Source: Schmidtea nova (lineage: Eukaryota). Taken from it: a stretch of DNA of 64,000 bases. The stretch spans positions 27,838,001-27,902,000 of the forward strand of contig CM097884.1 in assembly GCA_044892505.1 (NCBI GenBank). Reading direction: 5' to 3'. Position 1 is the stretch's first letter. Each line of letters opens with the position of its first letter. The position numbers were made by a program, and so were the translations under genes. The notes beneath the pieces are model-generated. The model worked only from the letters and a program-made list of their open reading frames with translations. It made no database searches and was not told where the DNA came from. Shown one piece after another: positions 1-55,704 of this stretch.

Positions 1-708
1 TATTATCAATGATATCGGAGGTATGTTGCACATAGGGGGTTCAAATGGGAAATTCAGAAAACATCTTTCGATGATACTGTCAATGTAATGTATTATATGA
101 TATGGAGCCGGAAGGCTCGTGGCTAAATGAGAGGTTTGAAGGGAACGAGGGTCGAGAAGTATTTTCTTTAAGTTGTCCTGAATAACGGGTTAATAGATAA
201 CGGATTAATAGATAACGGGCTAATAGACTTGGCAATTTGCATTTTTAGTGGTGTTATGGATAAGATGATCTGACAATTTTATTTTTGGGGTCCCAAATAG
301 TTATCGTTTATACGGATGCTGGCTTCATGGAGGGGTTAGATCAAAAATTTCTAATAATGGCTAGGGATTCCCCATCCATGACCATACATAAAATAATTGC
401 ACTTCTCACTCGAGCGCCCTTGGTTATTTGCCTCGATAACCAAGTTGGTGATGCGCCAGGTCGTTAAACAAGGATGGGCAGGTGAGCTCTATTGCTAGAA
501 CTACTCCCCATTTATGTTTACGGGTTCCTGCTGCCGTAGAAGGACTTACTCTATTTTATTTGTCACGAGAACGCCTGATTATTCGATCTCTATTGTTATG
601 TTTCTTACAAGTCTGATTTAAATTTAATTGCTATTAATTGCACAAAATGAAACAAAAAAAATAACAACAAGAAAAAATAAAAACGAAAATTTGTTAACAT
701 CAACTCTT

Positions 709-1298
709 TTATTTTGCACAAAAGTCAAAAAAATTTCCGTTGGGAGGAAATATCTCTGCCAACAACTCCGTTTCCGAAATCTCCGTCATGTTGTCCACTT
801 GAGCCTGCAGCTGCTGGGCAAACAGCTTTCTTTGTCGTCGGCGCTTAAAACCGATCCTTTTCCGTTTCCTTTTTTTCGGCGGAGCTTTTTACGACACTGG
901 GCTCTATTGAACATGAGGTGGTTACCAAACTTAGGCCTTCTGTATCGGTACTGACTGAACAGGCCACTTTTTGTTCCCCACCCATTTCTGGTAGGTAATC
1001 GGTCGAATCTGCGATCGCAATTCTGAGTCAATGAAGGATGCCGTCACAGAATGGATGCATCGGCGCAGTTCTATCTTCGTCGCCTACCATTCGGCACGGT
1101 AATCGTCAGCAGTTTTCTGTGCTGACGATTTATCTGCTCCTTCATACGAGCAGGGGTGAACCAACTATTTCTCAAATATTGGGTTTGGGCTTCGGCTTTA
1201 GTCAGTTGTGCTTTCACCTGTGCCAACTCCTTTTCTAGAGCTCGATGAATCCTCCATACTTTATCTAACTCTCGCTGTTGGCTTGTCTCTGGATTCAT
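709..1298 (-). pseudogene. ORF-B homolog, frameshifts and stop
   Basis: MNPETSQQRELDKVWRI..SWFTPARMKEQI, then EW*ATKIELRRCIHSVTAS, then KRKRIGFKRRRQRKLFAQQL in different frames. Confidence 0.85.
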
Positions 1299-1598
1299 AC
1301 TAAAATGTAAATGCATTTTGATTAGTGAATATTTCTATTGTGATAGGCTTTATAAGATGACAAAACTGCAACTCGGGTCCATTATGAGAACGAGGGAAAA
1401 AAAACAAGAAACAAAACCAACAAAAAAGAATTTAACACAAACTCATAATTCACTTAAACAACAATTTATTAGTTTGTTATCACACCATTGTTCGGATAAG
1501 TGTTAAGTTTCGCTTCCATGTACGGGGACGATATGCAGGCCTTGGTTTATCGGAGCGTGACGAATATGAGCTAACGAAAGATTGAGCCTAGGGCGTCT

Positions 1599-2002
1599 TC
1601 AGACAAGTCGTGGTAAGATGCATAACCTCAGCCCCAGTTTGAGTAATTCGTGTGGAGAGATATATCCCCAATATATCGCCGTTGTGGGATTTTGATCGGA
1701 GTCAATAATGACTATTACGAGCGATCCAATAGTTGTAGAATGTCCTTTATCGGAAATTGGCCATCCGGGGCCTCCTCGGTATAATATTTGGTCTCGACCA
1801 TTATTCCAGATGGAGAATGGGTATTTCTTCCCCATTTCTTCCCCAATTCTCGCCTTCATTTGTACATCAATATGTTGATTGTTCTCATGACTTCGTGGGG
1901 CAAGTCTTTCAGTTTTCGCTCCTTGTTAAACGCTGTAGTGCTGGCTGCCAATGCTGAATTTCGTTGAATTGATAGAAATTGTTCCACGGCTTGTCGTTCC
2001 AT
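1599..2002 (-). pseudogene. ORF-A homolog, nonsense plus frameshift
   Basis: LKDLPHEVMRTINILMYK*RR (stop at 1856-1858), a duplicated 11-mer, then YPFSIWNNGRDQILYRGGPGWPI..IYWGYI. Confidence 0.85.
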
Positions 2003-3529
2003 CTGTATGATTCGATTAAACATTTATCACTCAATTTTAATCGTAATGATGGGTATTTCAAATTTGGAGGAAACCCAGAGAGGTTCTGCACCCTGAATAA
2101 ATCACTAATAAGATTTTTTGGCCTTGCCCCAGGTCAGAATATATATAAAAAAATATTAAAAAAATATATGGTATTCCTTATATATTTATTCAACACTGTC
2201 GCTATATACAGCGATCAGAATTATTTAAAATTAGATCTTTAGATTTACCTGCGCTATTTACAGCGATCAGGTTTACGATGAATAAAAAAATGTCTAAGTT
2301 TAATTGTCGTGTAATCGCTTCGGTTGGTTTACATGATCGATTTTAATTTCATTTATTCACCTTGAAAAAAATGTTATAACTGACAACGAAAATTTATTTG
2401 GGTGACGGTATCCTTCTCGTGGTGTGTCCGGATGCATTTACTTACCCTGGCTGACATGTACTTGCATGATTGATCAGAATCATTGTGCCGATTAAAAATT
2501 CATGTTGGTAAAAATTTTTTCGATCGACAGAATGTGTGTAAAAATTTCGATTGATTTACTAACACTAGAATGTAAAGGATTTCGTTCGATTTACTGACGA
2601 TGGAATGTGAAAAATTCAATCGATTCACTAAAATTGTCATAAAAAAATCGGATCTATGGATCATTTCGAAAATTTAAAAACTTATGCAGCCCCATCCCAT
2701 GTGCAACTCTTAATAAAAATCTAATTACCAATTTATAAAGAGGTTTTAATCAAATCTAGCTTCTCCAATTCATCGCAAAAATCATAAAACTATTCACTCA
2801 CCATTCTGTGGAATTGTGAAGTCCCACAATAACGGCTTGCTCCCTCGTAGCGTGAGCTACGGAGGAAGCATATCTATAGGCATATCAATAATAATGGTAA
2901 AATAGTGATAATAAAATAACCAAATATAAATTATATTAATCAAAAATATAAAATCATGGGAACAATAATAAAAACATAAGTTTACAATAACAACTAAAAT
3001 TTTACTTTCAATCAAATGTCTTCGGATAAAATTGCAAATTAAGAATACTCACAAACGGTATAATTGTTATGAGTCTAAAATTAGATAGAGATAAATTAAT
3101 GCTCTAAGAACAATGCTAATTTTGTGATTTTCGGATCGGTATTTATACTGATCCAGTTGGTCAGATTGACCAATCAGGATCAGACCGTCCATCAAAGTCT
3201 GTCTATCATTTTATTTTATTCTAAATAATATTTTATTTCCGATTCAGGTTTCTCACTGGGTGGTCCTGATTTTCGAAGTAATTATTCAATTAATTGCACT
3301 TTTATTTTTATTTAATTAATAATTTTCCTGTTTCAGGACCCCCGCTGCTTGCTCTTTTGTGAATTTCGAATCCTTTTCTTTGCTGGTAATTTATTTACTA
3401 CTATTTATTTATTTAATTATGTTCTTTTTCCTAGATTGTGATGTTTTTAGTAACTTAATTAATTCATTTTTTGTTTTAATTATCTCATTATTTTTATCTC
3501 TTTAGCCCACTTGGCGGGCCCAACACGGA

Positions 3530-4455
3530 CAAGGAGAGATTGGCGAGTGGATTGGAGGTGTTTGAGTGACCCTTTTCTAACGAGAGAACCAAAGCGCGCC
3601 TAAGGGATGCCTTCGTGAAGATACCAAACTTATGTGAGGAGAGTATGATGAAACAAAACCGGGGTGTCAATGAAAGGCAGTGAACAACTTAGTCCGAGGA
3701 GTGGGTGTTAGTGATCACTCAATTTATATAAATTTCTAGAAATGCAAAAAGCCTGGCCAAAGATGGAACAACTAGAAATAGGCGTCGATATGAGCAGCTG
3801 GAAGGATACAAGGCACAACAGAGGAGAGTCCTCGGTCCATTGAAGGATTTACCTTCTTCCATAATACGCACGATAGACATAAAAATGCGCAATTTGTGCC
3901 AAAAATTTTCACCAATCTGCCTATTCTCGATTTGAAAGAACACCAAGGACGAAATATGGTATCGGGGAGGCATTCGTTGGTCCATCCCAGTAGACTCCAT
4001 ATATTCTTCCCAATATGCAAACTTGCTAATCCTTATCAAGGACGGACAGCAGCGTCCATGACAACTAATCTATTGGAGCTATATTCACCAATTCGAGTTT
4101 CAGGCCCTCGGATTCGTGTTGCTTTGTCCTACACGTCCACTCAGAAGACATCAAGAAGAGAAATTAGGTAGAGTTTTGAAATCGGAACTAAGGCGATGTT
4201 CCATTCGGCTCGGGTTGCAAATTCAACAAGTTTTTGAGTGGAACTCCACGTTATGTTTTGATTAGATTTCATCGTGAATATATTGAATATATGTGTCCTT
4301 GTGTAAATATTGTTTTGTTTAGTTTAGTATGAGAAATCTTTTTAAATTAAAAGTTGCTAAGTAAAATCGATGTCCTATGGACGAGTTAAGTGAAACAACA
4401 AATTAACTATTTATAAATGAATATACCCGAATTATTTCAAAAATTTCTAAGCAAC
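3530..4455 (+). mobile_element. Older LTR remnant R1, left part (ORF-A-like, about 3790-4170); boundaries approximate
   Basis: Plus-frame LKDLPSSIIRTID..CLFSI*..DEIWYRGG. Confidence 0.65.
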
Positions 4456-5996
4456 TGTTGGGCCCACGAAATAGTCTAAAACACATAAACATGGCATGAC
4501 AATAAAAACAAATAATAAAAATAAATTTAACTAAAACTTGGAAAATCTAAACCAAAAGAATAAAAATAAATAATTAAGCTAACAATAAACAACTCACAAG
4601 TAGAGAACAATCTGAATTTTGCAGTAGAGCAGCTAGCAGGGGGCCTGAAACAGAAAATAGAAAAATATAAATAAATTAAATAAAATAAAAGTTCAAGTAA
4701 TTAAATAATTACTTGGAAAATCAGGACCACCCAATGAGAAAACGAAACGGAAATAGAAAATAAGTTAAATAAATTAAAAATGATCGACATACTTTGATGG
4801 ACGGTCTGATCCTGATTGGTCAATCTGACCAATCGGTATAAATACCGATCCGAAAATCACAAATTTAGAATCATCAGCACTAATCTTTGAGACTCATAAC
4901 GACTATACTGTTTGTGAGCCTTCATAATTTGCAATCTTATTCGAGAAAATTTGATCATCGCGAAGTAAAGTTTTATTTGTTATGAATTTATTATGAACTG
5001 TTTCTATGATTTCATTGATAATGATTGATTAATATATTTTAGTTACGATATTTTCATTTTATTTATTCAGTTTATTGTTTTAATAACCTATAGATATACT
5101 TCCTCGACTGCTAACACGGCAAGGGAGTCAGTCGTTGTCATGGAGCCCCGTAGCTTCACACGATGGTTAGAACCTTTTATTTAATTTGGATTTTCGGTTA
5201 TTTTCATGGTTGCACATTGGAGGGATCTGAGCATCAGGCGTTAAGAGATGTTGTAGGGGAGGGAGATTTTCCGTGAAGCCCATTCAGCTGCACACACAAT
5301 TGTTCAATTCTGCATGATACGTATATCAAGAAACCCCGTCATATTTCAACACACTACAGGGAAGTATGTAAAGTCACTTAGAACCAGACAGTTTATCAAA
5401 CTGTAATTCATCAGAGGGTCATTTCAGACCGATGGAGTGCGATTCATAAAATTTTAGATCTGAGAAATGACGCAGTGCAATCCACCATAGGGCAAGGCAA
5501 GTTGACTATGCAGATACGTAGCAACTACCTAGTTATAAACCGATCGATCAAATTTATCAAAATTAACTCGACACACTCCGTAAATTCCTGTACAATTCAT
5601 TACGTTAATACCACAATTAGTAACAGACCATATTATTCGTCACAATATTTAGCGGCCAATGCATCCCTATCTAATGCCATCAGTAAAAATTCGTGTAAAA
5701 CTAATAATGCATAAAAATCAGTTGATTTATCCGTCTGAAATATGTAAAATCAATTAACACCAATTTGCAATGTAAACCATAAAATCTATAATCCTGATCG
5801 CTGTAGATAGCGACAGTGTTTAATAATTATGAGGGTTTGAGCTTCTTACAAAATATTTTTTGCAGAAATAGGAAATAGAACCTCTCCAAATGGGTAAAAT
5901 AGGTAAGTTATTACCCACCCTACAATTATGCGGCTCTTAATTCGATTACCAGACTATGTTAATAAAGCTTTTAGTTTGTTCAGTTGAATAAAAATA

Positions 5997-6494
5997 ATGG
6001 AAGCGAAAAAGATCAGGAAATTTGTTGACCAACAAAGGAAATCACCCATCTCCTCAAACGCATCAAATAATGACCCATATAGGAAGCTGAAAGATTTACC
6101 ACACCCAATTCTGAGGACGATCAATACGTTGATGTATAAGTGGAGACGAGCCTTCAAGGAAAATTGCCCATTTTCGATATGGGAAAATGGCAGAGATTTG
6201 GTGATGTATCAAGGGGGCTCCGGATGGCCCATAAAAACGGATGACCCATATTCTCCAAAGTTCGGGAAATTAATAATCATCCTCCTCGGACCCGACCAAA
6301 GACCCTTCCGAACGATTTAATGGGGACATATCCCGCAAAGAGAGCTCGCAGGACTGGGATTGCAACTCTTGACCTCGCACCGGCCTCTCGGAAGAGAATA
6401 CGAACTTAGTCAGCCAGAGTTTTTGCTGAGCAATCTGCGTCGAGCACCCATAAATCAAGGGCTACACATAGCTCACGTATTTAATAACAATTAA
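5997..6494 (+). pseudogene. ORF-A homolog with in-frame TAA at 6318-6320
   Basis: LKDLPHPILRTINTLMYKWRR..CPFSIW..PFRTI*WGHIPQRELAGLGL. Confidence 0.8.
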
Positions 6495-6519
6495 CCATCC
6501 AGTAACAACTTCCTACATC

Positions 6520-6837
6520 AAGAAAGAATTAAGGTCACAAATTAGACCCGTAACTTAACAAAGTTGGGTGACTGAACAAAAACCCATGTGTCCAATTGGT
6601 ACTGACGTCGAAGGATTATCGGGAGAAACAATAGGAAACCCCCAGCAGGCTACAAATGTCGTTCCCACTAGTAATACTCACCTGAAGAGGAAGAGGATCG
6701 TACAGAAACGCAGGTGGCAAAAGAAACTCTTCGCCCAGCGACTTCAAACACAAATAGACCACTTGTCGAACTTGAATGAAATCGACTTACTGGTAGAAAT
6801 CTTCCCATCAGAAGGAAATTTCCAAGAATTTTTATAA
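6520..6837 (+). pseudogene. C-terminal half of ORF-B (N-terminal part missing)
   Basis: KELRSQIRPVT*..IGTDVEGL..HLKRKRIVQKRRWQKKLFAQRL..LLVEIFP. Confidence 0.8.
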
Positions 6838-7023
6838 CCAATAAAGTGTTGCACGAAGTGCAGTTGTCGTTGTTCATGATTTTCTCTAATTATAATGTAG
6901 TAAAGCAAACACGTAAATAATTGATAATGAGCATACCTTGGTAAATTAAATAATAAATAAGCAGCACGCACGAAATTAATTAATAAACTACGAAATAAAG
7001 CGTAAGACCTTCCAACGGCAGCG

Positions 7024-7211
7024 TGTTTAAACATCTTCAGAAGATGAATGTAATGTATATAATGAATATAATTAATATAATGAATAGTATGAATAGTATG
7101 ATTGATTTATTTTTTTTTTATATTGTGATTAGATATCACTACATTTCTTTTTTTAATACATATAAACAAAAAACATAATAAAAAATACAGTAACTAGAAG
7201 AGTTAATTACA
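7024..7211 (-). repeat. Short (188 bp) 3' LTR of the nested Gypsy element
   Basis: On the minus strand the PPT-like ttttccggggggctata is followed by TGTAATTAAC...GTTTAAACA (TG...CA). Confidence 0.65.
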
Positions 7212-8369
7212 TATAGCCCCCCGGAAAAGTGCGGTGCATGTATAAACCATTGTCCCAAACTAGCACTCTTTCTATTTATATGTTTATTTACAGATTTGTC
7301 CAAACTTGAGACAATTTTGGGGAGGTAGAGAAAAGGAGAAGAAAAAAAGAAGTTATGTGTTTTTTGGTTATTTTATGATGCGTATCAACCTTGTAGGAGT
7401 ATTTATCGGTTGTCCTATTGTTCTTTCACGTACCCAATATGCGAAAGATGTCTTTTTGGATCTTGTATTTGATGAAGGTCTGTCTTGTTGGTTGTTTTTT
7501 AGAATCGATTTTTTGTTTGATTGTTTGTTCTTGAAGTCTTGGGTTTCAATTGATGTGTTTGGTTTGTATGTTTGTTCGGTGTTGTTTGGTATTGTTGTAA
7601 TTGTCTCAAAATCATTCGTTTGATTTTGATTTTGGATATTGTTTTGGTGAATGTAACCATCATTTGGGCTTGAACTAAAATCTTGATTGTCCATGAAATC
7701 GTGATTTCTTTCTATGAAGTGTTCAACTTCATGGTATTGTGAATTTGTTTGTTCGATGAAACCAAATGCTGGTTTTAATAGACTTAAATTTATTATCTGA
7801 TTTTGTTCATCGATGATCACATGTGCGTGGTTATCAGTGATCTTTACAGGTTTGTGTGGGCCTAGGTATCTCGGTTTTAAACCAGAATCAGATGTTGTTC
7901 TGATCCAAACGTGAGTTGCTTTTCCAAAACTTCGTGGAATATACGGTTTATATGTGGTACTTGTTGTGAATTGAGGGTCTGAGTTGATAGTGAGGAAGTG
8001 TGCTCTTGCTGTCTCTAGTTCCTCTAAGGTTGGATTGTTTCCAAAATCTATGATCTCGGAAGTTAGTGAAGTTTGTGATCCGAATAAAAGTTGAGAAGGA
8101 GTTGATCCTGTAGTTGTCGACGGAGTGTTTCTCCATCCCATTAAAACGAAAGGTAATGACTTGGTTCAACTTTTCGAGATAGAGAGTATTCTCGGAGAGG
8201 TTTTCAAAGTCCTGTAAAACCGTTCTAATAGACCATTTGTCTGCGGGTAATATGCTGTAGAGCTTAAATGTTTGATTCCTAATCTTTCAGTGAGGCGCTT
8301 AAAGATTTTGGATTCAAATTGTGCTCCACGATCTGTTATGATGTTTCTAGAAACGCCATAACGTGAAAT

Positions 8370-9473
8370 CTAATCTTGATCGATTTTGGTTGCAAAGTTT
8401 TCAGCTGTAATTGTTTTTAATGGGATTGCTTCAAACCAGCGTGTTTTTCTGTCAATCATAGTCAGTATGAGACTATATCCGTTATCCATTGGTAATGGGC
8501 CTACTAGATCGATGTGTACAACATCAAATCGATTTCCAGTTGGAAAATTCATTATTGGCGGTTTAGTGCTTTTGTTTATTTTGTTTTGTTGACAAAACAA
8601 ACATTGTGATACCCAATCTTTTATATCTTTTCTCATGGAAGGCCATACCACTCTGGTTCTCGGGAATTCATATGTTGATGAAGAACCTGGGTGGTGTAAG
8701 TCATGGATTGCTGAAAAAGCTAGTTTACGTAATGGAACTGCGAGTATAGGTCTCATGCAGCCTGGAATTGAAATGTCATAGTCGACGTCATCGAGGTTGA
8801 GGTACCCAGATGAGAAAACGGATATGTCTTCTTCGGTTGGCTTGTGTCTCTTGAGTTCGACGACTGAAAGGAGTGCCTGGTGAGTTATTGCGCAGGAACA
8901 TTTAGAAATACAATCTGCAACAACGTTTTCTCTGCACGCTATATATGTGATCGTGCAGCTGTATTCAGCAATATATGAAATTTGTCTCTGTTGTCGAGGA
9001 GATGGGTCTCTCATTGTTATGGCATGTACCAAAGGTTTATGGTCTGTGAATACAGTAAAGTTTCGTCCTTCCAAAATATGTGAAAAATGTTTAATGGAAA
9101 GATAAACTGCTAAGAGTTCGCGGTCGAAAGTTGAGTACTTCTGTTGTGCCGCGTTCAGTTTTTGTGAATGGAATTCTAAAGGTTCAGGAATTCTTTGATT
9201 GATTTGGTGTAAAACCGCTCCGATTGCTGTGTTCGATGCGTCCGTCGTTAAAGTGATCGGAAGATCTGGTTTTATGTATACCAGTGTTTGTATTTTTAAT
9301 AATGACTCTTTAGCTCTAGTAAAAGAGTGTAGAGCTTCATTGTTCCATTTAACTAGTTCATTTTTCTTTCCATTCGACAAATTTGTCATGGGTGCTAGGA
9401 TTTCTGAGATCGTAGGTATGAATTTGTGGCAGTAATTTGTGGTAACAAGAAACCTTCGGAGTTGTGTCACCAT
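8370..9473 (-). pseudogene. pol: Gypsy pol fragment: RT connection, RNase H, integrase N-terminus
   Basis: LTTDASNTAIGAVL, YSTFDRELLAVY, TDHKPL, HDLHH..CLFC, HIDLVGPL; ends at a premature stop. Confidence 0.9.
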
Positions 9474-9551
9474 TTTGGGTAGTTCAAAATTTTTGTTTGC
9501 AATCTAGCCTTTCTTGAAAAGGTCTAATTCCATCGCTTCTAATCAAGTGTC

Positions 9552-10115
9552 CTAAAAACGGGCTTCTTCTTGAAAGAACGAACATTTTTTATGGTTCATT
9601 TGTAGATTATTGGAATGCAGTGCGTTAAAAACTAAATTAAGGTGTTTTTCGTGTTCAATGTCATTTTCGGACCCTATTAAGATATCGCCTACGTATGCGA
9701 CAACGAAGTTGAATTTTCCAAGTATGTTGTCGATGTGTCTCTGGAAAGTTTGTGCTGCGTTCCTTAGTCCAAAAGGCATGTAGAGATATTCATATAAACC
9801 TATTGGTGTAATTACTGCTGTTTTGCATACATCCATGGGATTCATTGGGATTTGGTGATATGCTTTCTGTAAGTCAATTGTTGAAAAGATTTTGGTGTTC
9901 GTTAAACGGCGCAAAAGTTAATTTATTAATGGCATTGGATAAAAATCATGAACAGTTACATTGTTGAGTCTCCTGTAGTCGCCACATGGTCGGTAGGTAC
10001 CGTCTTTCTTGAGTACAAAAATGTATTGGTGATGACCATGATGACTGAGATTTCCTGACAATTCCATGTTCTTTAGTTCCAAAAATTCGTTCCGAAGATA
10101 TTCCAATTTTTGCAT
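9552..10115 (-). pseudogene. pol: Gypsy reverse transcriptase fragments, frameshifted
   Basis: [39 protein letters not shown]. Confidence 0.9.
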
Positions 10116-10571
10116 TGGTGAGAGGACGTAGCTTTTCTCGAAGTGGTAATGTTGAGGTTGTGACTGTAGAATGTTGGTACACCCCAGTGTTATTTACCAA
10201 ATTATTCGACTTGGTATTTGCTTTATTGTAACGTTCTTGAAGAGTCTGTATATATGGGTGAGTATTTTTGTTTGAAAATGATTGATTTTCAGTTATTGCT
10301 TTGACGGTTTGACTGTTTGATTTTAAAATTTTGCGGTTTTTGCAATCGACTAAAAGGTTGTTGGTAGCTAAGAAATCAGAACCCGCGAAAATAAATGGGG
10401 AGTAATTCCAGCGATGGAGCTCACCTGCCCATCATTTTGCAACCATCTTGCGCATCACCAACTTGACTATATAGGGAATAGTCAAGGGCGCTCGTGTGAA
10501 ATAAAGGATAGGGCATCCCTAGCATCTATTAGGAATTCTTCGTTTTAACCCTTCCATGAACCCAGCACAAC

Positions 10572-11510
10572 AGAGAAGTCAGGACGTAGTGGATAAAGCT
10601 CAGTGGTTTCGGAAAAGTCTTGAACGGGACCTCGAACACTGGAAAGCTCAAGCAACTAAGCTTTGAATCTAGAATCAATACCTGCGGCAATCCCTATTCA
10701 CCCCAATTTAAATGAAGGATCAGATTGGGTGCACCAAACTAGCTAAGCAAGCCGTAGCCGAAGTACAATTGGAGCTGGAAGCCACTCGGATGGAACTTCG
10801 AAAATGTCTACAATCGGTCACCCGATCTTTTGTTGAGACTGAATTGAGGGCGTGCATCCGCACAATCATATTACAACATTGGTCCGATCAACAGAAAACG
10901 TTTTGTTCGGTGGGAACTGACATGAGTGATCTGGTCGGCCCAACTGGGGCGAACAAAGGTAAATGCATTGGTGCTAAAAGGCAACACAAAAAAAACTATT
11001 ATCCCAGAAATTCAAGGCTCAAATTGACCGATTGGATGATTTTACCGAATTGGAGTTGCTGACGGATGTCCTCCCGCTAAGCACAGACTCAGCGGATTTT
11101 AATATACAATAAATGCTTTGTCTCCCAATGTGGTCTTGAATTTAGCATTAAGGATATATAGCAAAAATTAAGGTTTTAATTAACGAAAGAATTTAGCAAA
11201 ATTCCTTTTGTGGGGTATTTACCAGAAATTAATTAAATCCCGAAAATTGGGAAGGCGTTAATCCTTATATACGAACAGGCGAAAAGCGTAATACCTTCTA
11301 ACGGCCGCTAGTACTTGATGAATAGTGGGTAGCAAAGAGTAGTTTTTGTAGAGGGGCTTACCTGTCCGCTAGCCTCTCACCACCGTACACAGTTCCAACA
11401 TAGTTACCTGGGGAATGACCATGGGTGTACGAGTGGAATAGATAGATATTTATGTTAAGGCGTGGATTGCATCCATACCCTAAGTCAACAGTGAAAATAT
11501 CGATGTGTAA
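10572..11510 (+). mobile_element. Older LTR remnant R1, right part (ORF-B-like and LTR 3' region); boundaries approximate
   Basis: MKDQIG..ELEATRMELRKCLQSVTRSFVETELRACIR; continues the left part across the solo LTR 2 TSD. Confidence 0.7.
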
Positions 11511-14148: not shown

Positions 14149-14628
14149 ATGTCTGAGGAAACAATAACCCGAATGATAGTCAATTGTAGACGGTCGTTGG
14201 AAGCAAGGAAAACGCAAAACAAGGCCGGGAAACTAAAGGAATTACCCTCGCCAATCATGCGGACAATAAATGCGCTCATGTATAAATGACGTCGAGACTT
14301 CGGAAGGAAGTGCCCATTTTCTATTTGGGCTGATGACAACGAACTCATTCTATGTCGGGGCGGCCCTGGATGGCCAGAATCTAATCAAACCTATTCTCCG
14401 AAAGTCGGACGACTATTAATTATTTTAAGAGATGCCGACGGAAAGCCCAGACAAGTGATATATTGGGGGCATATTCCCCGAGACGAGCTTCATAAACTAG
14501 GACTCCGCGCATTCGTCCGCCCACGATCGTTCGGAAGGGAATGCAATACCACTCAATCCAATTTCTCACTAGCAAGGCTATGTCAAGCGGCAATAAATCA
14601 GGAGATTCACATTTTATTCCGAGTGTAG
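14149..14628 (+). pseudogene. ORF-A homolog, full length except one TGG>TGA at 14287
   Basis: 160 codons in one frame: LKELPSPIMRTINALMYK*RRDFGRKCPFSIW..IYWGHIPRDEL. Confidence 0.85.
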
Positions 14629-14781
14629 TGAATGAACATTAATATTGAATCAAGTTGTATTAGTAATAAAAGTTCCATCAAATCTGACTTAATTATTGGG
14701 GTTGATTTTGTATGCTGAATAAATAATTATTCTTAAATCATAATAAAAGTAGAGAATTTTCACTTCATCACGCTTGTAGAA

Positions 14782-20789: not shown

Positions 20790-20834
20790 CCTGATCCTGA
20801 TTGGTCAATCCAACCAGACGGATCAGTATAAATA
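20790..20834 (+). promoter_or_regulatory. Putative LTR Pol II promoter (inverted CCAAT box plus TATA box); second copy at 47653-47697
   Basis: ATTGG at 20800-20804 and TATAAATA at 20827-20834. The block ctgattggtcaa...tataaataccgat is conserved in related LTRs (TATA at 3140-3147 minus strand, 4837, 11815, 13146) while flanks diverge. Confidence 0.6.
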
Positions 20835-25243: not shown

Positions 25244-25298
25244 GAGGCCAATGAGCCATATTGAATGACCTAGCTAGGCGTTATGAGAGATTAAGTTA

Positions 25299-43911: not shown

Positions 43912-45288
43912 ATGGACAGAGAAGAACGAATAATCGAAATTTTGAGATTAGAAAACAGAAAATGGAGCAAGAGGCTCACATGCGGAAAATGTAACAATTT
44001 ATTACGAGAACCCAAACAAACGATATGTGGATGTAGAATATGTACAAAATGTATACAAGAATTAGATGCAACAGGAATAACAACATGCCCAGAATGTAAG
44101 GAAGGAAGAATAGTGTTGGACGAAATCAGAACGGACAAAGCAACCCAAAGAGAAATTATGAGCACCACAACGGAGTGCGTAAATACACCTTGTACATGGC
44201 AAGGACAAATAAGTAATCTAGAAAATCATATGGAAAAGTGCGAGGAGAAAGGAGCCGAATGCGAGAAGTGCCAACAAACAATAATTCTAAAGAAGAGAGA
44301 ACAACACAAGGACGAATGTAAAGAAGAAGAAATCGCATGCGAGTATTGTGAAACTCGAGAAACAAGGGGAAAAATCGAAGAAGAACATTTGAATATAACA
44401 GAGGAGAAAGTATGCGGACAATATGTAAGTAACTGTCCAAACAATTGCGAAATAACAGAAGAAGTAAAGTTACATGAACATTGGAAAGTATGTACCGAAA
44501 GACCAAGAGAATGTCCATATAACAAACAGGGATGCAAAGAAAAGCGGACGCGGCAATCAATGAAACAACACCTAGAAGAAGCAGCACTAACGCATGTAGA
44601 AATGACAAACGAAACGACAAAAGAAACGGAACAGACAATCCAGAAATTAGAAAAAGAAGTAGAATCACATAAGATAATGATGAGTTTACTACTAGAAACA
44701 AGAGAGCAGTTTGAACTAACTCGCGAAAGAATGGAAAAGAAAATAATAGCCATAGAAGAATTAGGAAAAGGAATGAAAATACAATATAATCAGTTAATAC
44801 GAGAAATTGACGAAAGAAGGGACTTACCAATTGCACCTTACCTATGGAAAGTAACAGATTTCAGAGACAAACTAGCAGAAGCCAGAAATATGACGAAAAC
44901 AGCAGTAATAAGCCCACCATTTTATTTATGGAAAAACGGGGTTAAAATAAGATTGAAAGTATACCCAAATGGAGACGGAAGAGGACAAGGAACACACGTG
45001 TCAATATTTTTCTCGCTATGTAAAGGAGAATACGATGACCTAATAGAATGGCCCTTGAAAGTAGGAGTCATTATAAGAATCAAAAGTATGGGAAAACCAG
45101 TAGAAAAGTTCTTTGAAACAGACAAACATACGAGTACGAGCGAAAAACCAACGACAGAATGCGGACTAGCAGCAGGAGAACCAATGTTTATAAGGAAAGA
45201 AAACCTATGGGAGCGACTATATGCAGACACGCTATACATAGAGATGGAGAGGCATGAGAAAACAGACAGAAAAGGATGGTTGGCGTAA
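43912..45288 (+). CDS. Full-length TRAF-family protein (RING, TRAF zinc fingers, coiled coil, MATH/TRAF-C), 458 aa, intronless
   Basis: CGKCNNLLREPKQTICGCRICTKC RING; CTWQG..LENHMEKC fingers; YLWKVTDF..SPPFY..YPNGDGRGQGTHVSIFF..GEYDDLIEWP MATH signature. Confidence 0.93.
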   Translation: MDREERIIEILRLENRKWSKRLTCGKCNNLLREPKQTICGCRICTKCIQELDATGITTCPECKEGRIVLDEIRTDKATQREIMSTTTECVNTPCTWQGQISNLENHMEKCEEKGAECEKCQQTIILKKREQHKDECKEEEIACEYCETRETRGKIEEEHLNITEEKVCGQYVSNCPNNCEITEEVKLHEHWKVCTERPRECPYNKQGCKEKRTRQSMKQHLEEAALTHVEMTNETTKETEQTIQKLEKEVESHKIMMSLLLETREQFELTRERMEKKIIAIEELGKGMKIQYNQLIREIDERRDLPIAPYLWKVTDFRDKLAEARNMTKTAVISPPFYLWKNGVKIRLKVYPNGDGRGQGTHVSIFFSLCKGEYDDLIEWPLKVGVIIRIKSMGKPVEKFFETDKHTSTSEKPTTECGLAAGEPMFIRKENLWERLYADTLYIEMERHEKTDRKGWLA

Positions 45289-47310: not shown

Positions 47311-48730
47311 TGTTGGGCCCGCCAAATCACCTAAAAAACACAACAAAACGAACAAAAGCACGAAACAATAAAGAAATAATAAAAATAAAAATAGCAAGAA
47401 AAACAAATTAAAAATAACAATAAAACGACAAATAATAATTGACAAATTTTCAGTAAGAGGAAATTTTGAAAATAAACCGGTAAACAACCGCAAAGGGGGG
47501 CCTGAAATCGGAAAAAATAGAATTAAATAAAATAATAGTGCAAATAATTAATTAATTACTTGGAAAATCAGGACCACCCAGCGAGAAACCGGAAAAGGAA
47601 ACAAAATAATGTTTAGATTAGATTAAAATAATAAAAATACTTTGATGGACGGCCTGATCCTGATTGGTCAATCCAACCAGACGGATCAGTATAAATACCG
47701 ATCCAAAAATCACAGACTTAGACTTTTACTTTTCACTCAAGATCAAGACTAAACTTTGATTTGAGTAAATTTTTTGAAAAAACCGAATTTCATACAAGGA
47801 ACCACATATTCAAGTACGGAAGTAATTTTTTTTATTTTTTATCTTATATGATGTACCCATGATTTTTAGTTTAATTAAAATCTTATATGTAAACGTTATC
47901 TTATATTTTTTTTTTGATATTTTAATGCATATAGTTATACTTCCTATGCTGCTCACGCGGCGAGGGAGTCCGAGTCGTCGTTGTGGGGCCTCACGGTCTC
48001 ACATGGCGGTTCAACCTTTTTATTGTTTTGGTTTTCATTTTTTGGTAGTTGAAATAATTAAACTAAATCATTTAACTAGATATTTATCAGCGAGATTAGA
48101 GAATTTTAATGCTTATTTAGTCGAGTAAAATTTTCAGTCACGAAATATCGATAATGCGAATACGTCCAGACAGTTTTCTGGCGATAAGTAAAAAATCATC
48201 ATTTGGTTGTACAGGGGACGTAGCACAGCGGGCGGTAGAGAAGGTCTAAGGGGATACCAGGAGGGGGTAAAGTACCCGATAGGTGTCAGGTACCCGAGAC
48301 AAATGGGTTGACACGCTGAGGTTAAATTTGAGGACGAGAGAGCAGGTATAACATGACAAGTTCTATAAAATTTTCCAAGTAAATCGATCAAACTGATGAA
48401 TTTCAATTAAGGTCAAGGTACGGGATATAGCAACTGCATGACAGAGATTAGTAAGACTGAAAATCATAAATTCTAAAAATACTTTAAATTCCAATCTAAT
48501 AAAACCAAAAATCTGTAATTCTAAAAATACTTTTATGCCGATCGCTGTACATAGCGCGGTAGCTCAAACTAATCTTATCCTGATCGTCGTACATGGCGCA
48601 GGGAAACAAATATCTTCTCCGACCGTGGTATATCGCGGTGATGGTTTAAAAATGAGATGGTATTAACTAACAGGATTGAGATTAAATATAATTTACATTC
48701 AACTCTTTATTGAATAAAATAAAATGACAG

Positions 48731-49207
48731 ATGCTGACATCATTGAACGAAAGATTAATGCGGATTCGGAACTCAGGAAAGGAGGACAGGGCGAATGGAT
48801 GGGCAAACCAGCTCAAGGAGTTGCCCCAGCCAATTCTGCGGACCATTAACGCCCAAGCGTACAAGTGGCGACAAGGGTTTGGTCGAAAGTGCCCGTTTTC
48901 CATCTGGGACGGAGGAAGCGATGAAATACTCTATCGAGGAGGACCGAACTGGCCTATTTCCCAAAGGCCGTACTCAAATAAGTTTGGCCGATTAATCGTA
49001 CTGATCAAGGACACAGATGGACGGACAAGCCGTGTAATTTATTGGGGGCATATCCCTCGTCGAGAGCTATGCCAACTGGGTCTGTACGAGTTCTTACCAC
49101 GAAAACCGTTCGGCAAGGAGTGCCAGAAAGGACAACCCTCGTTCTCTTGGGCTCGTCTTCGTCAGAAACCGATTAACAGCGAATTGCATAGTTTGTTTCG
49201 GAGATGA
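48731..49207 (+). CDS. ORF-A copy in 3' LTR
   Basis: Same translation as 21868-22344. Confidence 0.8.
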   Translation: MLTSLNERLMRIRNSGKEDRANGWANQLKELPQPILRTINAQAYKWRQGFGRKCPFSIWDGGSDEILYRGGPNWPISQRPYSNKFGRLIVLIKDTDGRTSRVIYWGHIPRRELCQLGLYEFLPRKPFGKECQKGQPSFSWARLRQKPINSELHSLFRR

Positions 49208-49385
49208 AAACTGATTAACAAATGTTGAAATTGTGTTAAAATATTAGAGTTCATTAGTGAATTTTTTGTTTTTGAGTTTTGTTTCGCATTTTAATAGTTC
49301 ATATTCGTAACCTAATAATCCTATGATCAGATTTTAATTTTCATATAATTAAATCATAGAGTAAATATCCTAAATAAATTATAGA

Positions 49386-49982
49386 ATGAACCCCGATTTG
49401 ATGCAGAGAGAATTTGAAAAGATGTGGCGGATTCGGAGAGCCCAGGACAAGGAATTGGGTCTCCTCAAGGCACAATTGATCAAAGCCGAGGCACAGATTG
49501 CATACTTGCGCAAAAGCTGGTTTGCTCCGGCCAGAATGAAAGAGCAAATCAGTAAAACCGAGCGCGCCCAACAGACTGCAGCCGATTACCAAATGGAATG
49601 GGAGGCTACAAAGATAGAGCTCCGAAAATGCCTCCATTCCGTGACTGCCTCATATATTGAGAAGGAGCTCAGAGACCAAATCCGTCCGGTTACGTACCAA
49701 GCGTGGACATCAGAAAAGAAGACGGTAAATTCCATTGGCACGGATGTCGCCGATCTAATCGAAAGTCGGAATGAGACAGCTCCTGCAGCAAATTCAACCA
49801 CCTCATCGGCGAATACGCACCAAAAACGCAAGCGCATTGGGCAGAAACGGCGAAGACAGAGAAAATTATTTGCCCAGCAATTACAAAGCCAAGTCGATGG
49901 TCTACATCAGATGACCGAGGAGGCATTATTGGCGGAGATTTTTCCTCCGGCGGGAGTTTTTACCGAACTCATTAAAAATTAA
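49386..49982 (+). CDS. ORF-B copy in 3' LTR
   Basis: Same as 22523-23119 except one L/F change. Confidence 0.85.
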   Translation: MNPDLMQREFEKMWRIRRAQDKELGLLKAQLIKAEAQIAYLRKSWFAPARMKEQISKTERAQQTAADYQMEWEATKIELRKCLHSVTASYIEKELRDQIRPVTYQAWTSEKKTVNSIGTDVADLIESRNETAPAANSTTSSANTHQKRKRIGQKRRRQRKLFAQQLQSQVDGLHQMTEEALLAEIFPPAGVFTELIKN

Positions 49983-50455
49983 ATAAATTGTTGTATTGGC
50001 TTAAGAATTTCATCGTTCGTTTAAATCGATTTAATTAACTTTACCAATGATTAGATAAAGATAGAACAAAAGTATAAATTCATTTTACAAAATATCGAAT
50101 AGAGATAATTAAATAATTAAGCGAGCATTCGTTGAAATACTTCTCGCAGACTGAGCAATGATAAAAATAAATTTTCTGAAAGATTCACGCGGAATACATA
50201 AGTAGATGATTAAAGCATAAGTCCTTCTAACGGCAGCGATGAACCCGTAAACATAAATGGGGAGTAGTACTAGCGATAGTGCTCACCTGCCCATCATTGT
50301 TTAACCACCCTGCGCATCACCAACTTGATTATATAGGGAAAAAATCAAGGGCGCTTGAGTGTAGAATTGCAATTTTGTGCATGATCATGGATGAGGGAAT
50401 CCCTAGTCATTGTTAGAACATTTTTCATCTAACCCCTCCATGAACCCAGCAAAAG

Positions 50456-53053
50456 ATATATTTTGTTGAGTAATTTTCATTTAATTATTATATTATTCGG
50501 GTAATCCATAATATTATTTTTGTTCTAAAATCACTAAGGAGAGCCTCGTCGGTTACCCACCACGAGGTTAACGGTCTCTTGGTCGCAACTCTTTCTGGGG
50601 TTGCGTCGATGTGGTGACATGCGCCAACATTAAAGGGGAGCGGAAGAAATTTGCACCAAGGATATTTTTATAAAGTGTTTTCATAAAATTGGTAGTTATA
50701 TTTTCGTGACGCATTTCATATATTGTTATAGTTATATTAAAACCCTAGGATAGTTTGGAATTATAATAAAATATAGAGGGTTCTCTAAATCTATCATTCC
50801 AAACCATAGGACAGCTCATAAAAATTTCCCGAATATATTTGAAAGCAGGGGGTATCGTATGATGACGCGTATTAATACCTCATAATTTAGTTTTCAAAAA
50901 TCTCACATTGACTTATAGTCCGACAATATGGGTGAACGGGGTATTGAATTTCCTCCCAAAAATCACGATAATCGGCGAAAGGATGATATGCCACGCCCTG
51001 TAAGTCACTGAAATCCAATCACGACTGAGCATAAATGATTGCGAATAAATTATGTCGGTAAAACTAACATAGAAAAACAAATATGCAAGTGAATTGTACT
51101 ACCCAGAAATGTGGATTAATCTAATCCCATTAAGCATAGCCAAAGGTCAAATCTTTGAAGCATCGCGAATAGATTGTTTACGTAAATTACGAACATCATT
51201 TGTATAGACAAATAAGCCGACATCCATTGATGAAGCAAGCATGCATAGATAGTAGTGAGTGTTCAGGTAGACCGACTTGCCGATACCGGTTGGTTATATC
51301 GTGACCATTGGGATATAAATATTTATATGAAGAATCAATGCAATTATACTATTTCAGTTAATCTATAGACAATTTACATCATTTAGAATTGGTAGCTTAA
51401 GCAAAGAGCGATCCAAAAGAACACTCGAAGTTATGTTCCAAGACTTCTACGTATGTAAGGACCCGTCAGAGCATTCCGATCAAGAATCCAGTCTCCTCCC
51501 AATTAAAGCTCTCCCTCGAGAAGTTAGCCTAGAAGTAAATGTCCATATGTGGTGTTGGCGAAAGGATTTCAAGCATCGTTCGCCTTTCAGGATTTCGGAC
51601 AACAACTCACTCAATTAAATCTCCTGGCCATCCACTGAGTCAGATACAGGATCAAAACTCTTTCCAATGTGGTTCGTAGTTATAAAAGACGAAGCCACTC
51701 TTCCCCGATGGATTATATGCTTCGATTCCATTCCGCTCACATACCTCAACCAATTAGGGTTCGTGCTCCTCGGAAATCCACGAGATCTCAGAACTGGGGA
51801 AGCAAAGAACTTCTCCAAATAACCAAATGCATTCGATGAAAAATAACGCCTAAGATCTACCTGGGGCTCAAAGATCGTGATCAGAGAGGTCTTCATCTTC
51901 AAGTAATCCTTATGCTGGCAGCCAGATGCCTCAATTTATGGCACAGATGGGATCAGGCTCGAGGCCGCTACCAATCATAAGAATTTATGCGAAGATCCAA
52001 AAACTATCAAATCTAACTTTATGTTGTGATAAACGTTGAAATTGGTGAAGTTATGAATTAAATCATTTCGTTGTTTGTTTTTCTTTTATACATTTTAAAT
52101 TTAAGTTAATTAATTTGGTGATCAAATGAGAAGGAGAAAAAGTACATGAAAGCGCACACGTAGACCTATACGAGAACGGCGGGTCAGGGCGCTAAATCAT
52201 TTTCGATTTATATGAACTAGTAAAATTATTTATTTTGAAATCGGGAATGGATGCCAACTTGACCCCTACGACTAAGATCCTTAGATTGCTCAGAACCCTC
52301 AGAAAGGAGAATTTCGAACTAAAAGGCGCCATCGCGAGACGAACCTATGAGATTGATAACAATTCCAATGGATCGAACGTCTTCAACAAACCTTGGAGGA
52401 ACAGTCGATCGAGCTCACGGCTTCTAAATGCGAATTAGTAATTGCAGGCTCAGATTCGCCCCATGACGCTGGAACGATGGTCCAGTCCGCCAACGTCCAC
52501 GAAAGAAACTCAGGCGGAAGAACTAACGAACTCTAACGTGATGGAAGTCGCTAATTAAAGTACTCTACCCACGACTTCCTCATCCAATTCAAAGGTTAGA
52601 AAACGAAACCGGGTGGAAGCAAAGCTATAAAGGGAACCACGAACTTTCACCGAAAAACTTAATATTCAAGTTGATTGACTCAACGAGTTAAGTGAGATTC
52701 AATTATTGAACGTTATTGATATTAATGTATTGCAAAATACAAAATTGAAGGTTGTGTATCGTCTTATTTTATTTAGAATAATAGTATAAAGAAATTACTG
52801 ATTGGAGTCAAACTGTAAAGATTTTGGGACCGGGAATATAGTGAAATCATCGGTCTTCTATCGACCGTGAAACCGAGTATGTGAAAAAGGAAAGTAGTGG
52901 TCACATACACCGTATCATACAGTACAAACGTGGGATTTGGCTAGGGACATTCTACGGGTTTCATAGCGGAGAAAATAAACATTTTTTATGTTGGTGGAGC
53001 TAACCCTATTAAAACATTGTAACTCAAATGGAAAATTATCACCAAACACCAGC
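50456..53053 (+). mobile_element. Older LTR remnant R4 (ORF-A-like about 51433-51900, ORF-B-like about 52235-52720)
   Basis: IKALPREVSLEVNVHMWCWRKDFKHRSPFRI; IELTASKCEL..FTEKLNIQVD*LNELSEIQLL; ends caccagca. Confidence 0.6.
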
Positions 53054-53099
53054 AAACTTAATGTGGAATATATTTTTAATAGCATTCGGCACCGTATTT

Positions 53100-55704
53100 G
53101 AACCCCATGGGAGCCCAATCAACCCTATAACCACTCGATTTACCCACTATTTGATGCGCTAGATGTACAATCATGGGTACCCAATTTTCATTTATATAAA
53201 TCGATTAACAAAATAAAGGGATAATAAAGGCAACCCGGTTGCGTTGGGAACCAGAATTAAAAGCCAAACAGTGCGTCTCGATTATCTTCGTAGAGTACTG
53301 TGAATATGCCCTTCATGAAATACTGGAGTTTAATTTTTTTCATAAATGGTGTGAAGTAGATTCATCTAGACAATCAACCAAATCATAATGTGTAACGTCG
53401 AATAAATTGATAAGTATTGCCATTCAAACGGATTCGTATTAAGTAAACTTGAAAATTTCGCAAACAAGCGACTAATATCGAGGGGTCGCATAGATTTGCT
53501 GGACCTAGTGTATTTTCAATACAAACTTCCGATATAGAAGGATTATCGCGCAATAGACTGAGGTATCCGGGCGTAATTTTTAGTATTTAATGGTTAAACT
53601 AGCAACAATTCATATACACCCAATCGATCAGAACCTGATATGATCATACGAAAGATCTCATCAGACTTAGTATAAACCTTTAAACTGATTAATGCATCAA
53701 AACGATATTGGCTGAACGTATGGTATCACGTAAATCACTGGTTTCCGTTATTTACCTTGTCAGGGCGAATAAATATATACTGATTTGTTAAAATTTGTCA
53801 AATTAAGTTAATTCGGAACTATCATCGAGTCAAAATTGTTCATTCACAAAGAAATTCTCAATCAGCGCCCACGAGTGGGTCTCCCTTGACAATTCAACGC
53901 TCACGTTTGGAGCGTGGCAGTCGACAACGGTTTCTAGAGCCCTTGAAGCTGCTCCCAATGAAGGTCCAACGGGACGTAAACATTCAGATACGACGATGGC
54001 GCTCAGAATTTCAGTGAAGAACTTTGTTCAATCTTTGGGACAACGAAAGTTGAGACGAGATATGGTGGCAAGGCGGAGACCCCACTGGCCGATCTCCTCC
54101 ACCGAGCAAGTCATCCACGTCCAATGCAACTGGTTTGCACTCCTCTGAGACGATTCGAACCTCCCGAAATGTATCATATATTTTGACTCGATTGTGGTCA
54201 GCGAACTCAATCAGTTGGTGTTTATCTTATTAGGACCCCCCGCTGCACCAAGACTGGTCGGGAACTGGTATTCAAAAACCTCCTGTTCCGCTTTGAAACA
54301 AACCCGTAATCCAGTTGGTAGACGAATATCACGATCAAAGAAATTTTCACGTTCAAGTCTCAGATGTGCGGTCTCCGACACTCGCGTATCCTCTCCTCCA
54401 GGATTATTTAGTCCAACCAGCCAATTTCTACCAAGAATTCCTGATTTAGCTAAAGTGATTGACTAGTACGAATAACGATCTAACAGTTGTCGTTTGTTTT
54501 TTCGATAATATTATAATTTGGCGTATAATTGTTTTATTTCATTTTATATCTAACGCTTAAAAAACTAAATTCATAAATCGAGGAGAATAATAAACATCAG
54601 TCCCTTAAACGTAGATCAAGAATTTTGCCAAGACTTCCCAATTAGATACCCAAGTTGAACAAATAAGTCCATATTAGTAGTAGGTGCCTATCTATTAGCA
54701 CGATACTTCTCAGCAAATTAACACTGGTAAGGGTAGGGAAATCAAAGGGCCAACACCCAGTGCAGTGACTTACATTTTTAAGTGTCTAATGTTTTTTTAT
54801 ATAAAAAGCGATTAAAACCTCCACTAGCAAATCAGTCGAATTTCTTCAAGTGATCCGACATTTACAACAAGAGAACAAAAACCTCAAATGATAATTGCAG
54901 GACAAGCAAACGAGAAAGCAACTCTCAGAATAATTTATTTCTCGCCGGCTGACATGAAAGCCAGTTATTAAAAGATTCAGCGACTACGGAGGGCGATCAA
55001 AGACCAGTCCTTAGAACTCACGGCAACGAAATGCAAATTAAAAGCTTGTCTGCATTTAGTTTAACGTGATTATGTAAATGAGCAACTGCGAGCTCAGATC
55101 CGTCCAATTACATTCGACAAATAGATCACCAAAGTACTGATGGCAAGAGAGACACAAACTGACTGCTCTGAGGTTATTGAAACGATAGAGGTCAGACGAA
55201 CAGAGACAATGCCAACTATTAATTCAGTAGGTAACAAAAGGAAGAGACAAAACGGATGGGAGTTAAGCGCCGTAAGGAACGAGGGGCTTATGCGGACCAA
55301 CTTGGAATAAAAATTGACTGGCTCAGCGGACGGACCGAAGAACAGTTAATAGAAAATATTAATCCCACTGTTTTTAATAAATAAATGTGGTGTTCGACTT
55401 TGTTTAAGTTGTATCATAATATTAACTTAGATGGCGTCTTATAAAGGGGGTGAGGGAATATAATAAGAGAGTTAAGTCTTCCATCGATCAATGAACTCAA
55501 GCGTACGAAAGTGGATAGTAGTGATCACCCAGGTCGCTCACCTGCTCACTTGGTATGCACCGTATGGTACAGCATCAACGTGGAATAAGCCTAGGGAAAT
55601 TTCACGGGTACCATAGCGGGGTAAATTCATTTTTATGTTGGTGAAGTTCGCTCTAACCACACACCGAGAAACACTCAATTCATACTCCTACCAATACACC
55701 AACA
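53100..55704 (+). mobile_element. Older LTR remnant R5 (ORF-A-like about 53900-54200, ORF-B-like about 54880-55380); left boundary approximate
   Basis: LKLLPMKVQRDVNIQIRRWR..DEIWWQGG; FSPADMK..ELTATKCKLKACLH..QLRAQIRPIT; ends caccaaca. Its 3' region resembles 52870-53053. Confidence 0.6.

Follow-up and report, generated by a model that had tools for sequence, protein, structure and literature searches.

Introduction

The usual view of long terminal repeats (LTRs) is that they are control DNA with no coding role, and that solo LTRs are either dead ends or promoters on loan. Genes in or overlapping LTRs are known from retroviruses, where sag of mouse mammary tumour virus (MMTV), nef of human immunodeficiency virus (HIV) and bel of foamy viruses are expressed by splicing or from an extra promoter. 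This work concerns two open reading frames (ORFs), ORF-A and ORF-B, that lie within the LTRs of a giant Ty3/gypsy element of Schmidtea nova. The window, meaning the whole 64,000-nucleotide (nt) stretch analysed, covers positions 27,838,001 to 27,902,000 of contig CM097884.1 (assembly GCA_044892505.1, forward strand), and coordinates count from its first letter. ORF-A and ORF-B are best explained as accessory genes of a Burro-like element that are sited inside its LTR, would be expressed by splicing, would act as regulators and decay in solo LTRs. This explanation as a whole is held with slightly more confidence than doubt.

Gene-like LTRs have also been described in retroelements. In the available part of PMC10886601, the miniature terminal-repeat retrotransposons (TRIMs) Cassandra, Helenus and Ajax are non-autonomous elements whose LTRs carry a gene-like unit, 5S- or tRNA-derived and of RNA polymerase III (Pol III) type. 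The Burro/GYPSM1 elements of planarians are described, in the portion of PMC6431247 available, as ~30 kb in length with a huge polyprotein that contains three CCHC knuckles and an in-frame mononegavirus-type envelope (env) region before protease, reverse transcriptase, RNase H and integrase (PR-RT-RH-IN). The present element is classed as Burro-like by its match to this published architecture. Burro elements abound in planarians, and for one of them a benefit to stem cells is reported, second-hand in the accessible text.

The element type is already known. What is real and unusual is that the LTR forms a two-gene unit in its own right and that this unit is under selection in three families. 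No description of protein genes inside Burro LTRs was found in the literature searched, and the primary Burro papers (Grohme 2018, Lee 2026) may already show them. Repeat masking would conceal both ORFs from annotation. Solo formation strips the replication genes from an element but retains ORF-A and ORF-B.

Purifying selection on the LTR genes

In the 5' LTR of the full-length element, ORF-A (158 aa; 21868–22344, + strand) is followed by ORF-B (198 aa; 22523–23119, +). Second copies lie at 48731–49207 and 49386–49982. Further copies were collected by searching the genome for ORF-B, which gave 9,773 first-look candidates, of which 150 were scored. Of these 150, 80 family-1 loci (40 unpaired and 20 pairs) were used, along with 40 family-2 loci out of the 150 given by a second search, with the ORF-B of the solo LTR at 12770, both samples being picked by similarity to ORF-B. 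Searches based on relics added 60 older or third-family loci.

Pairwise ratios of non-synonymous to synonymous change (omega, dN/dS; NG86) were 0.225 in family 1 and 0.27 in family 2 for ORF-A, and 0.11 and 0.15, respectively, for ORF-B. Codon models gave 0.353 for 95 sequences and 0.224 for 97. Between families dS is saturated, and the ORF-B pair at 14782 and 22523 displays 101 synonymous differences on 129 sites versus a dN of 0.24. The first-pass annotation had suspected purifying selection from synonymous codon differences within the WFAPARMK stretch of this pair. Those differences are as it described them, and genome-wide codon comparison extends the selection to both genes, with omega of 0.11–0.35 across ~100 copies.

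The order of the genes is also stable. ORF-A lies 5' of ORF-B on the same strand in all 38 two-gene loci among the 60 older or third-family loci. The third family has the same layout at 24–33% protein identity (~30%) and shares the promoter block and the end block described below. ORF-A and ORF-B are almost certainly protein-coding genes under purifying selection during element replication, in three families and in the order promoter, A, B, AATAAA.

The ORFs could in principle be chance frames or shadows of RNA-level constraint, a view that agrees with the lack of any homologue or fold found outside this genome. This is considered extremely improbable. Same-strand shifted frames have omega of 1.04–2.6, and values far below 1 are confined to the sense frame and to the in-register antisense frame that shadows it (0.18–0.39, above the sense value in every comparison). 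Start, stop and order are kept down to the lowest identities given above. The chance-frame view is already refuted because the selection signal is frame-specific.

The full-length element

The element spans 20448–50451 (+; 30,004 bp) and is flanked by the target-site duplication (TSD) AAAG/AAAG. Its 5' LTR (20448–23588, +; 3141 bp) has TG...CA ends. The 3' LTR (47311–50451, +) follows a purine-rich tract (polypurine tract, PPT), which is common to all 3' LTRs examined. The two LTRs mismatch at 3 of 3141 positions and appear in a self-comparison of the window as one near-identical 3.1-kb repeat pair, next to several diverged copies. Behind the 5' LTR is the primer-binding site (PBS; 23595–23612, +), which may resemble tRNA-Pro. 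With TG...CA LTRs, a TSD, a PBS and a PPT, the element has the features of the Ty3/gypsy group.

A polyprotein frame of 5,422 codons (26283–42551, +) encodes gag, three CCHC knuckles, a mononegavirus-type fusion protein, PR, RT, RNase H, IN and ankyrins. The fusion (env) domain matches PF24664 with an E-value of 2.7e-70 and lies in frame between gag plus knuckles and PR. The order PR-RT-RH-IN is found at residues 2647, 2959, 3180 and 3418–3589. A length of ~30 kb, a polyprotein of ~5,000 aa, an in-frame env and MATH/TRAF, RING and ankyrin modules agree with a Burro-like element. No BIR or Bcl-2 match was found in the element with Pfam, and a candidate BCL2 stretch had no match in the PDB.

This candidate, at 31281–31721, lies upstream of env where a BCL2-like motif has been described in Burro and has no match in Pfam or the PDB. 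By eye its end resembles the BH2 motif of BCL2. In this copy the first 194 codons of the polyprotein frame (26283–26864) contain no ATG. After the integrase the polyprotein continues for ~1,700 more residues (37600–42551), with the ankyrins and several repeated hydrophobic-ended modules that have no Pfam match. The internal leader at 24861–25698 holds two tandem arrays of 13 repeats each, with units of 29 nt and 32 nt.

Two of the internal small ORFs have recognisable domains, namely an accessory ORF with a RING finger (23920–24381, +) and a TRAF-like ORF with RING, zf-TRAF and MATH domains (43912–45288, +). In both an AG lies just ahead of the ATG, as in five of the six internal small ORFs (23920, 43462, 43912, 45402 and 46539). 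The sixth is preceded by a stop and lies in the apparent polyprotein tail. The three remaining AG-ATG ORFs (119, ~350 and ~190 aa) have no Pfam match above the cut-off.

Probable expression of ORF-A and ORF-B

Two blocks are ~98% identical among 60 family-1 LTRs. The first (20448–20858) is closed by the promoter block P1 (20780–20858, +), which contains an inverted CCAAT at 20800 and a TATA at 20827 and ends 30 nt past the TATA. The second is the conserved end block (23348–23588, +), which may represent U5 or R-U5. P1 is followed by a putative first exon, an ATG-free leader (20855–20958, +) that ends at a conserved donor-like GT (20959; alternative 20951). In 123 copies, the first 100 nt after the TATA contain 4 ATGs versus ~200 expected, and other triplets of the same letters are common. 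This depletion is seen despite divergence, as eight representatives are only 47–63% alike in these 100 nt. The donor-like GT is present in 59/60 family-1 and 17/25 family-2 LTRs.

Between the inferred start and the genes there are 19 ATGs before ORF-A and 29 before ORF-B, so translation from unspliced RNA would be poor. AG abuts the ATG of the ORF-A at 21868, and a YAG sits at most 6 nt before the ATG in 24 of 28 ORF-A and 17 of 22 ORF-B representatives, against a background of 14% among 3,623 other LTR ATGs. Two poly(A) hexamers follow. The first, pA1 (AATAAA; 23119–23124, +), lies directly behind the ORF-B stop and is found in that position in 76/81 family-1 copies, 24/37 family-2 copies and 4/5 older window units. 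The second, pA2 (ATTAAA; 23346–23351, +), lies just 5' of the end block and is retained in 73/81 and 19/37 copies, respectively. Within the end block no hexamer was found in any of 118 copies. The placement of the genes downstream of a conserved TATA promoter, as proposed in the first-pass annotation, holds up well: the promoter, with its ATG-free leader, behaves like a true start, and a hexamer stands behind ORF-B.

From these signals we infer that both genes are expressed by splicing. P1 would start an ATG-free first exon of ~100 nt, which would be spliced to acceptors directly before each ATG in the manner of complex retroviruses. Short A and B mRNAs would end at pA1, with longer RNAs reading through. 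The AG-ATG starts of the internal ORFs, ORF-A and ORF-B suggest one splicing scheme across the whole element. The internal accessory ORFs are probably fed from this leader as well, so P1 is taken to be the main promoter, with both genes inside R. This arrangement, a P1-started leader exon cis-spliced to the acceptors with an R of ~2.3–2.5 kb, is considered probable. No polyadenylated retrocopy ending behind pA1 was found. Contigs of unspecified kind from four runs gave 81 joints, and none of the 15 listed was of the GT..AG type.

Spliced-leader trans-splicing occurs in flatworms. Release of the ORFs by this route forms one half of an alternative whose other half, that the proteins modulate the host, is discussed below. 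Taken together these are regarded as unlikely, although not negligible. Trans-splicing would be expected to leave the same AG-ATG signature, whereas an ATG-free leader with a donor-like site is what cis-splicing predicts.

Three further candidates were rejected. A GTAAGT at the start of the end block, considered as the major splice donor, is present in 0/60 family-1 and 19/25 family-2 LTRs. Locus L176, considered as a spliced copy, has an internal deletion, but neither the putative leader donor nor the ORF-A acceptor forms a junction in it. A planarian Initiator, as defined in the accessible part of PMC10558129, has a partial match at 23430–23438 that family 3 lacks and that is situated behind both hexamers.

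Extent of R and U3

The first-pass annotation assigned both genes to R/U5. U5 is an improbable place for them, as both genes have hexamers downstream and the last 240 nt hold none. Between a long R and a long U3 the leader, hexamer and linkage evidence points both ways, and we favour a long R, which is judged about twice as probable as a long U3.

In the competing arrangement P1, ORF-A, ORF-B and pA1 form a nested cassette, a separate sag-like unit within a 2.9-kb U3, and the genomic RNA would start from a TATA-less promoter near 23350, just past pA2, which would leave R short. A short R with the poly(A) signal in U3 is known from avian leukosis virus and MMTV. Conservation jumps from 0.86 to 0.98 at 23348, and the hexamer just upstream of this position in 73/81 and 19/37 copies is pA2. 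Linkage in family 1 is low at the same boundary, and fewer read-through events would be required. The lack of a TATA box means little here, as a TATA box occurs in only 5% of planarian promoters according to the available text of PMC10558129.

Nonetheless, the nested cassette is rated as the less probable of the two and as rather unlikely overall. Before the end block TATA is found in 7/118 and CCAAT in 6/118 copies, and this region does not align between families. The end block would be a poor leader for the internal AG-ATG ORFs because it contains several conserved ATGs and the GTAAGT is absent from 60/60 family-1 LTRs. The linkage drop is confined to family 1, with none in family 2, and the positive control of the linkage test had no power.

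Two points weigh on the other side, against a long R. In family 1, linkage within the LTR is weakest for the end block (excess r2 0.01–0.04), whereas the 5' block is linked to 23120–23230 (0.13). This pattern fits a long U3 as well as it fits early strand transfer in a long R. In addition, the long-R model requires reading through two hexamers in the 5' LTR.

The proteins and their candidate RNA target

ORF-A encodes a basic protein (pI 10.5) with a core of ~90 residues, at positions 28–120, that includes invariant Trp, Cys, Phe and Gly. Its structure model is unreliable (pLDDT 44.5), with a best structural match of Z 3.5 and no viral match. The model of the ORF-B protein (pI 9.7) shows long helices and a variable linker, plus a helix that bears an arginine-rich motif (pLDDT 76, pTM 0.29), and it has no structural match. 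The motif, at residues 147–160, contains 6–10 Lys/Arg and no Asp/Glu in 21/21 proteins.

No homologue of either protein was found in a set of 5.8 billion proteins, in viral and metagenome contigs or in the PDB. Pfam and PHROGs gave only matches below the cut-off, and Atlas nothing at 0.9 or above. These profile and structure searches agree with the first-pass annotation, which had recognised no domain in either protein. They do not show novelty, because the searched collections hold few flatworm proteins. One apparent homologue, P0001 (E 1.3e-4), is a 1,163-aa repeat protein matched in six short stretches and was judged spurious. A bZIP identity for ORF-B was likewise rejected. The bZIP pattern is a leucine zipper preceded by a basic region in which an Asn and an Arg are invariant. 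None of the 21 proteins has a bZIP Pfam match at E 0.1, and the basic region lacks Asn in the 17 family-1 and family-2 proteins.

Two RNA structures are predicted between P1 and ORF-A. The first is a conserved GC-rich double hairpin (21075–21150, +), in which 7 of 24 pairs have changed on both sides among four window copies. The second is an array of bulged hairpins (21674–21780, +) 5' of ORF-A, each consisting of a 4-bp stem, a 2-nt bulge, a 4-bp stem and a GUAnAU loop. Arrays hold 2–4 such hairpins. Across 118 copies the pattern has 356 matches, each of them lying in the 330 nt upstream of ORF-A, and it has no match in antisense, in 30 shuffles of the window or elsewhere. In 97 instances picked by sequence anchor alone, the inner stem is paired in 87% versus 69 +/- 1.6% after partner shuffling. 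It covaries, with C-G, U-A and G-C swapped at the same positions, and 28 G-U versus 10 C-A cells favour the sense RNA. Rfam has no match for the LTR RNA structures.

Among family-1 LTRs the region before ORF-A (21300–21870) and the ORF-A N-terminus exist in alternative versions that align poorly, all of which keep the YAG-ATG and the hairpins. These versions suggest frequent recombination between subfamilies.

The basic motif, the intronic hairpins and a 30-kb RNA with many acceptors together suggest control of the Rev or Tat type. ORF-B would be a coiled-coil oligomer whose arginine-rich motif works like that of Rev or Tat, and its likely target would be the hairpins before the ORF-A acceptor, which would be present only in unspliced RNA. 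Rev, Rex and Tat are not known to be homologous to each other. ORF-B has no match to any of them in Pfam, the PDB or a viral structure library. As a possible role, we tentatively propose that both proteins act in the nucleus to regulate the RNA of the element itself, with ORF-B being Rev/Tat-like and the hairpins its likely target.

Two observations count against this role. Basic motifs serve equally as nuclear-localisation or DNA-binding signals. The bulged-hairpin pattern is also found in none of the 20 loci L251–L270, family 3 included, although family-3 ORF-B keeps the basic motif. Hence the RNA-target idea is either not general or the target differs in family 3.

The other half of the alternative introduced above, and covered by the same low rating, is that the proteins are counter-silencing or host-modulating factors, acting by DNA or chromatin binding or as piRNA-pathway antagonists. 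Both proteins are basic, and the element is rich in host-modulating modules (RING, TRAF, ankyrin). Burro is also under piRNA control according to the available text of PMC8532177 and PMC10558129. However, neither protein matches any DNA-binding or silencing family.

Fate of solo LTRs

Solo LTRs arise through ordinary LTR-LTR recombination. The 40 unpaired family-1 loci comprise 33 solos, four 5' LTRs and three 3' LTRs, with a perfect 4-bp TSD in 32 of the solos and one mismatch in the other. The 40 family-2 loci comprise 22 solos, two 3' LTRs and 16 without a recognisable end. Pattern counts at up to one mismatch gave 1,018 LTR ends versus 343 LTR-PBS junctions in the genome. Roughly one third of the ~1,018 LTR ends may be solos, a rough figure as the two counts used different patterns. 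An apparently very young family is marked by many LTR pairs ~25 kb apart on contig C1, with identical ORF-A matches within pairs and ~31% identity to the relic at 18976.

The first-pass annotation proposed that each solo LTR could be a self-contained expression unit and that the cassettes persist in this form. The anatomy fits this description, as a young solo is in its sequence a complete two-gene unit with promoter, genes and poly(A) hexamer. Maintenance is the part that finds no support. Changes shared among insertions have omega of 0.14–0.39, whereas ORF-A changes private to one insertion have omega of 0.96 (33 family-1 solos) and 1.30 (25 family-2 LTRs). The private changes in family-2 ORF-A include 11 stops versus 5.4 expected. 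Stops are found in 19/37 ORF-A and 21/39 ORF-B copies of family 2, whose frameshift counts were unreliable and were left aside. Differences within LTR pairs are non-synonymous or stop in 17 of 26 cases (p=0.37 against 0.74), too few for a neutrality test. Selection acts mainly while the element replicates. Because private ORF-A changes are neutral and about half of the older copies carry stops, solos persist as DNA and not as maintained genes. Young solos would perhaps be transcribed yet not maintained, with decay following.

Some of the data weigh against this conclusion. Private changes in ORF-B have omega below 1, at 0.44 in family-1 solos (p=0.003) and 0.62 in family 2 (p=0.002), which may indicate weak selection on ORF-B continuing after insertion. 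These values are read as bias, because similarity to ORF-B decided which loci were taken and some of the private changes arose late but still before insertion. The copies are also kin, so that counts overstate independence.

The same values are what would be expected if solos were maintained expression units, with hundreds of them providing A and B in trans under post-insertion selection, an arrangement from which the element family or the host would profit. The share of solos among LTR ends estimated above agrees with such a supply. Young family-1 solos are mostly intact (29/33 for ORF-A, 32/33 for ORF-B) with promoter, acceptors and hexamer, although this sample was selected by best ORF-B match. 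A Burro1-encoded IAP protein is reported, second-hand in the available part of PMC13465017, to aid host stem cells. Set against the neutral ORF-A changes, the excess of private stops, the stops in about half of the family-2 copies and the lack of a window solo with both genes open, maintenance of solos appears improbable. A still broader proposal joins the spliced two-gene LTR with an R of ~2.5 kb to a Rev/Tat-like regulator with its own hairpin target, the level of which is set in trans by transcription from hundreds of young intact solos. This too is unlikely as a whole, if somewhat less so. The system offers a direct test of splicing and RNA export control by a 30-kb retroelement, and of solo LTR action in trans.

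LTR units in the window

The 10 ORF-A-like and 9 ORF-B-like loci counted in the first-pass annotation were recovered by tblastn and profile search, with no matches in shuffled or reversed controls of the window. Its further statement that every unit carries A then B behind a CCAAT/TATA block holds in part. Nine A-then-B pairs each lie on one strand, but the block is recognisable in 6 of 10 units and one ORF-A is an orphan. Termini were established for five of the ten units, namely three solos and the two LTRs of the full element, which are the only units with both frames open.

In the three solos ORF-A is open in none and ORF-B in one. The solo at 317–3525 (-; TSD CGGA/CGGA) has both ORFs broken. 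That at 4456–10567 (+; TSD CAAC/CAAC) has stops in both ORFs and an ORF-B without its first 83 codons. It was inserted at the start of an older ORF-B and carries a decayed fragment (7371–10431, -) of a different gypsy element with RT, RNase H and integrase. The family-2 solo at 12770–15863 (+; TSD TTTA/TTTC) has one stop in ORF-A (14149–14628) and an open ORF-B (14782–15378).

The other five units are older relics without recognisable termini, two of which are split by solos. The relic at 3810–11076 (+), with A at 3810–4223 and B at 10556–11076, is split by the 4456 solo. That at 11779–17475 (+), with its promoter block at 11779, A at 16211–16417 and B at 17050–17475, is split by the 12770 solo. 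The orphan ORF-A (18976–19269, +) has no ORF-B found adjoining. No promoter block was recognised in the relics at 51433–52717 (+; A 51433–51807, B 52360–52717) and 53907–55372 (+; A 53907–54238, B 54897–55372), the latter having an AATAAA behind B. Overall, 317–20447 and 50452–55700 are densely nested, with at least 10 LTR units of the same lineage within 56 kb and younger ones inside older ones. The AT-rich right end of the window holds a 110-aa frame (59775–60104, -) with no Pfam match, which by eye we take to resemble the tail of a Polinton-type DNA polymerase.

Comparison with known systems

The element shares with Burro/GYPSM1, as far as the accessible text of PMC6431247 goes, gag, ankyrins, TRAF/MATH and RING modules, accessory ORFs and tandem repeats in the leader. 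It differs in that the MATH/TRAF module is a downstream accessory ORF and no BIR or BCL2 match was found. A further difference is that the same portion of PMC6431247 names no LTR-internal gene, whereas ORF-A and ORF-B are present here.

The retroviral genes sag, nef and bel are located in U3 or overlap it, upstream of the main start, generally as a single gene. In contrast, the two genes described here are contained entirely within the LTR, downstream of the one TATA box it has and with a poly(A) signal behind them, and no sequence similarity to the retroviral genes was found. The likeness to Rev/Rex with the Rev response element (RRE) and to Tat with TAR lies in a small basic arginine-rich protein, bulged hairpins in the same transcription unit and one leader feeding many acceptors. 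ORF-B differs in being a long coiled coil with putative RNA binding, and no hairpin array was found in family 3. If the regulatory role is true, an invertebrate gypsy lineage would have arrived independently at the kind of control used by complex retroviruses. With the TRIMs, the element shares an LTR that carries its own gene-like unit; there these units are Pol III sequences, while here they are protein genes under selection.

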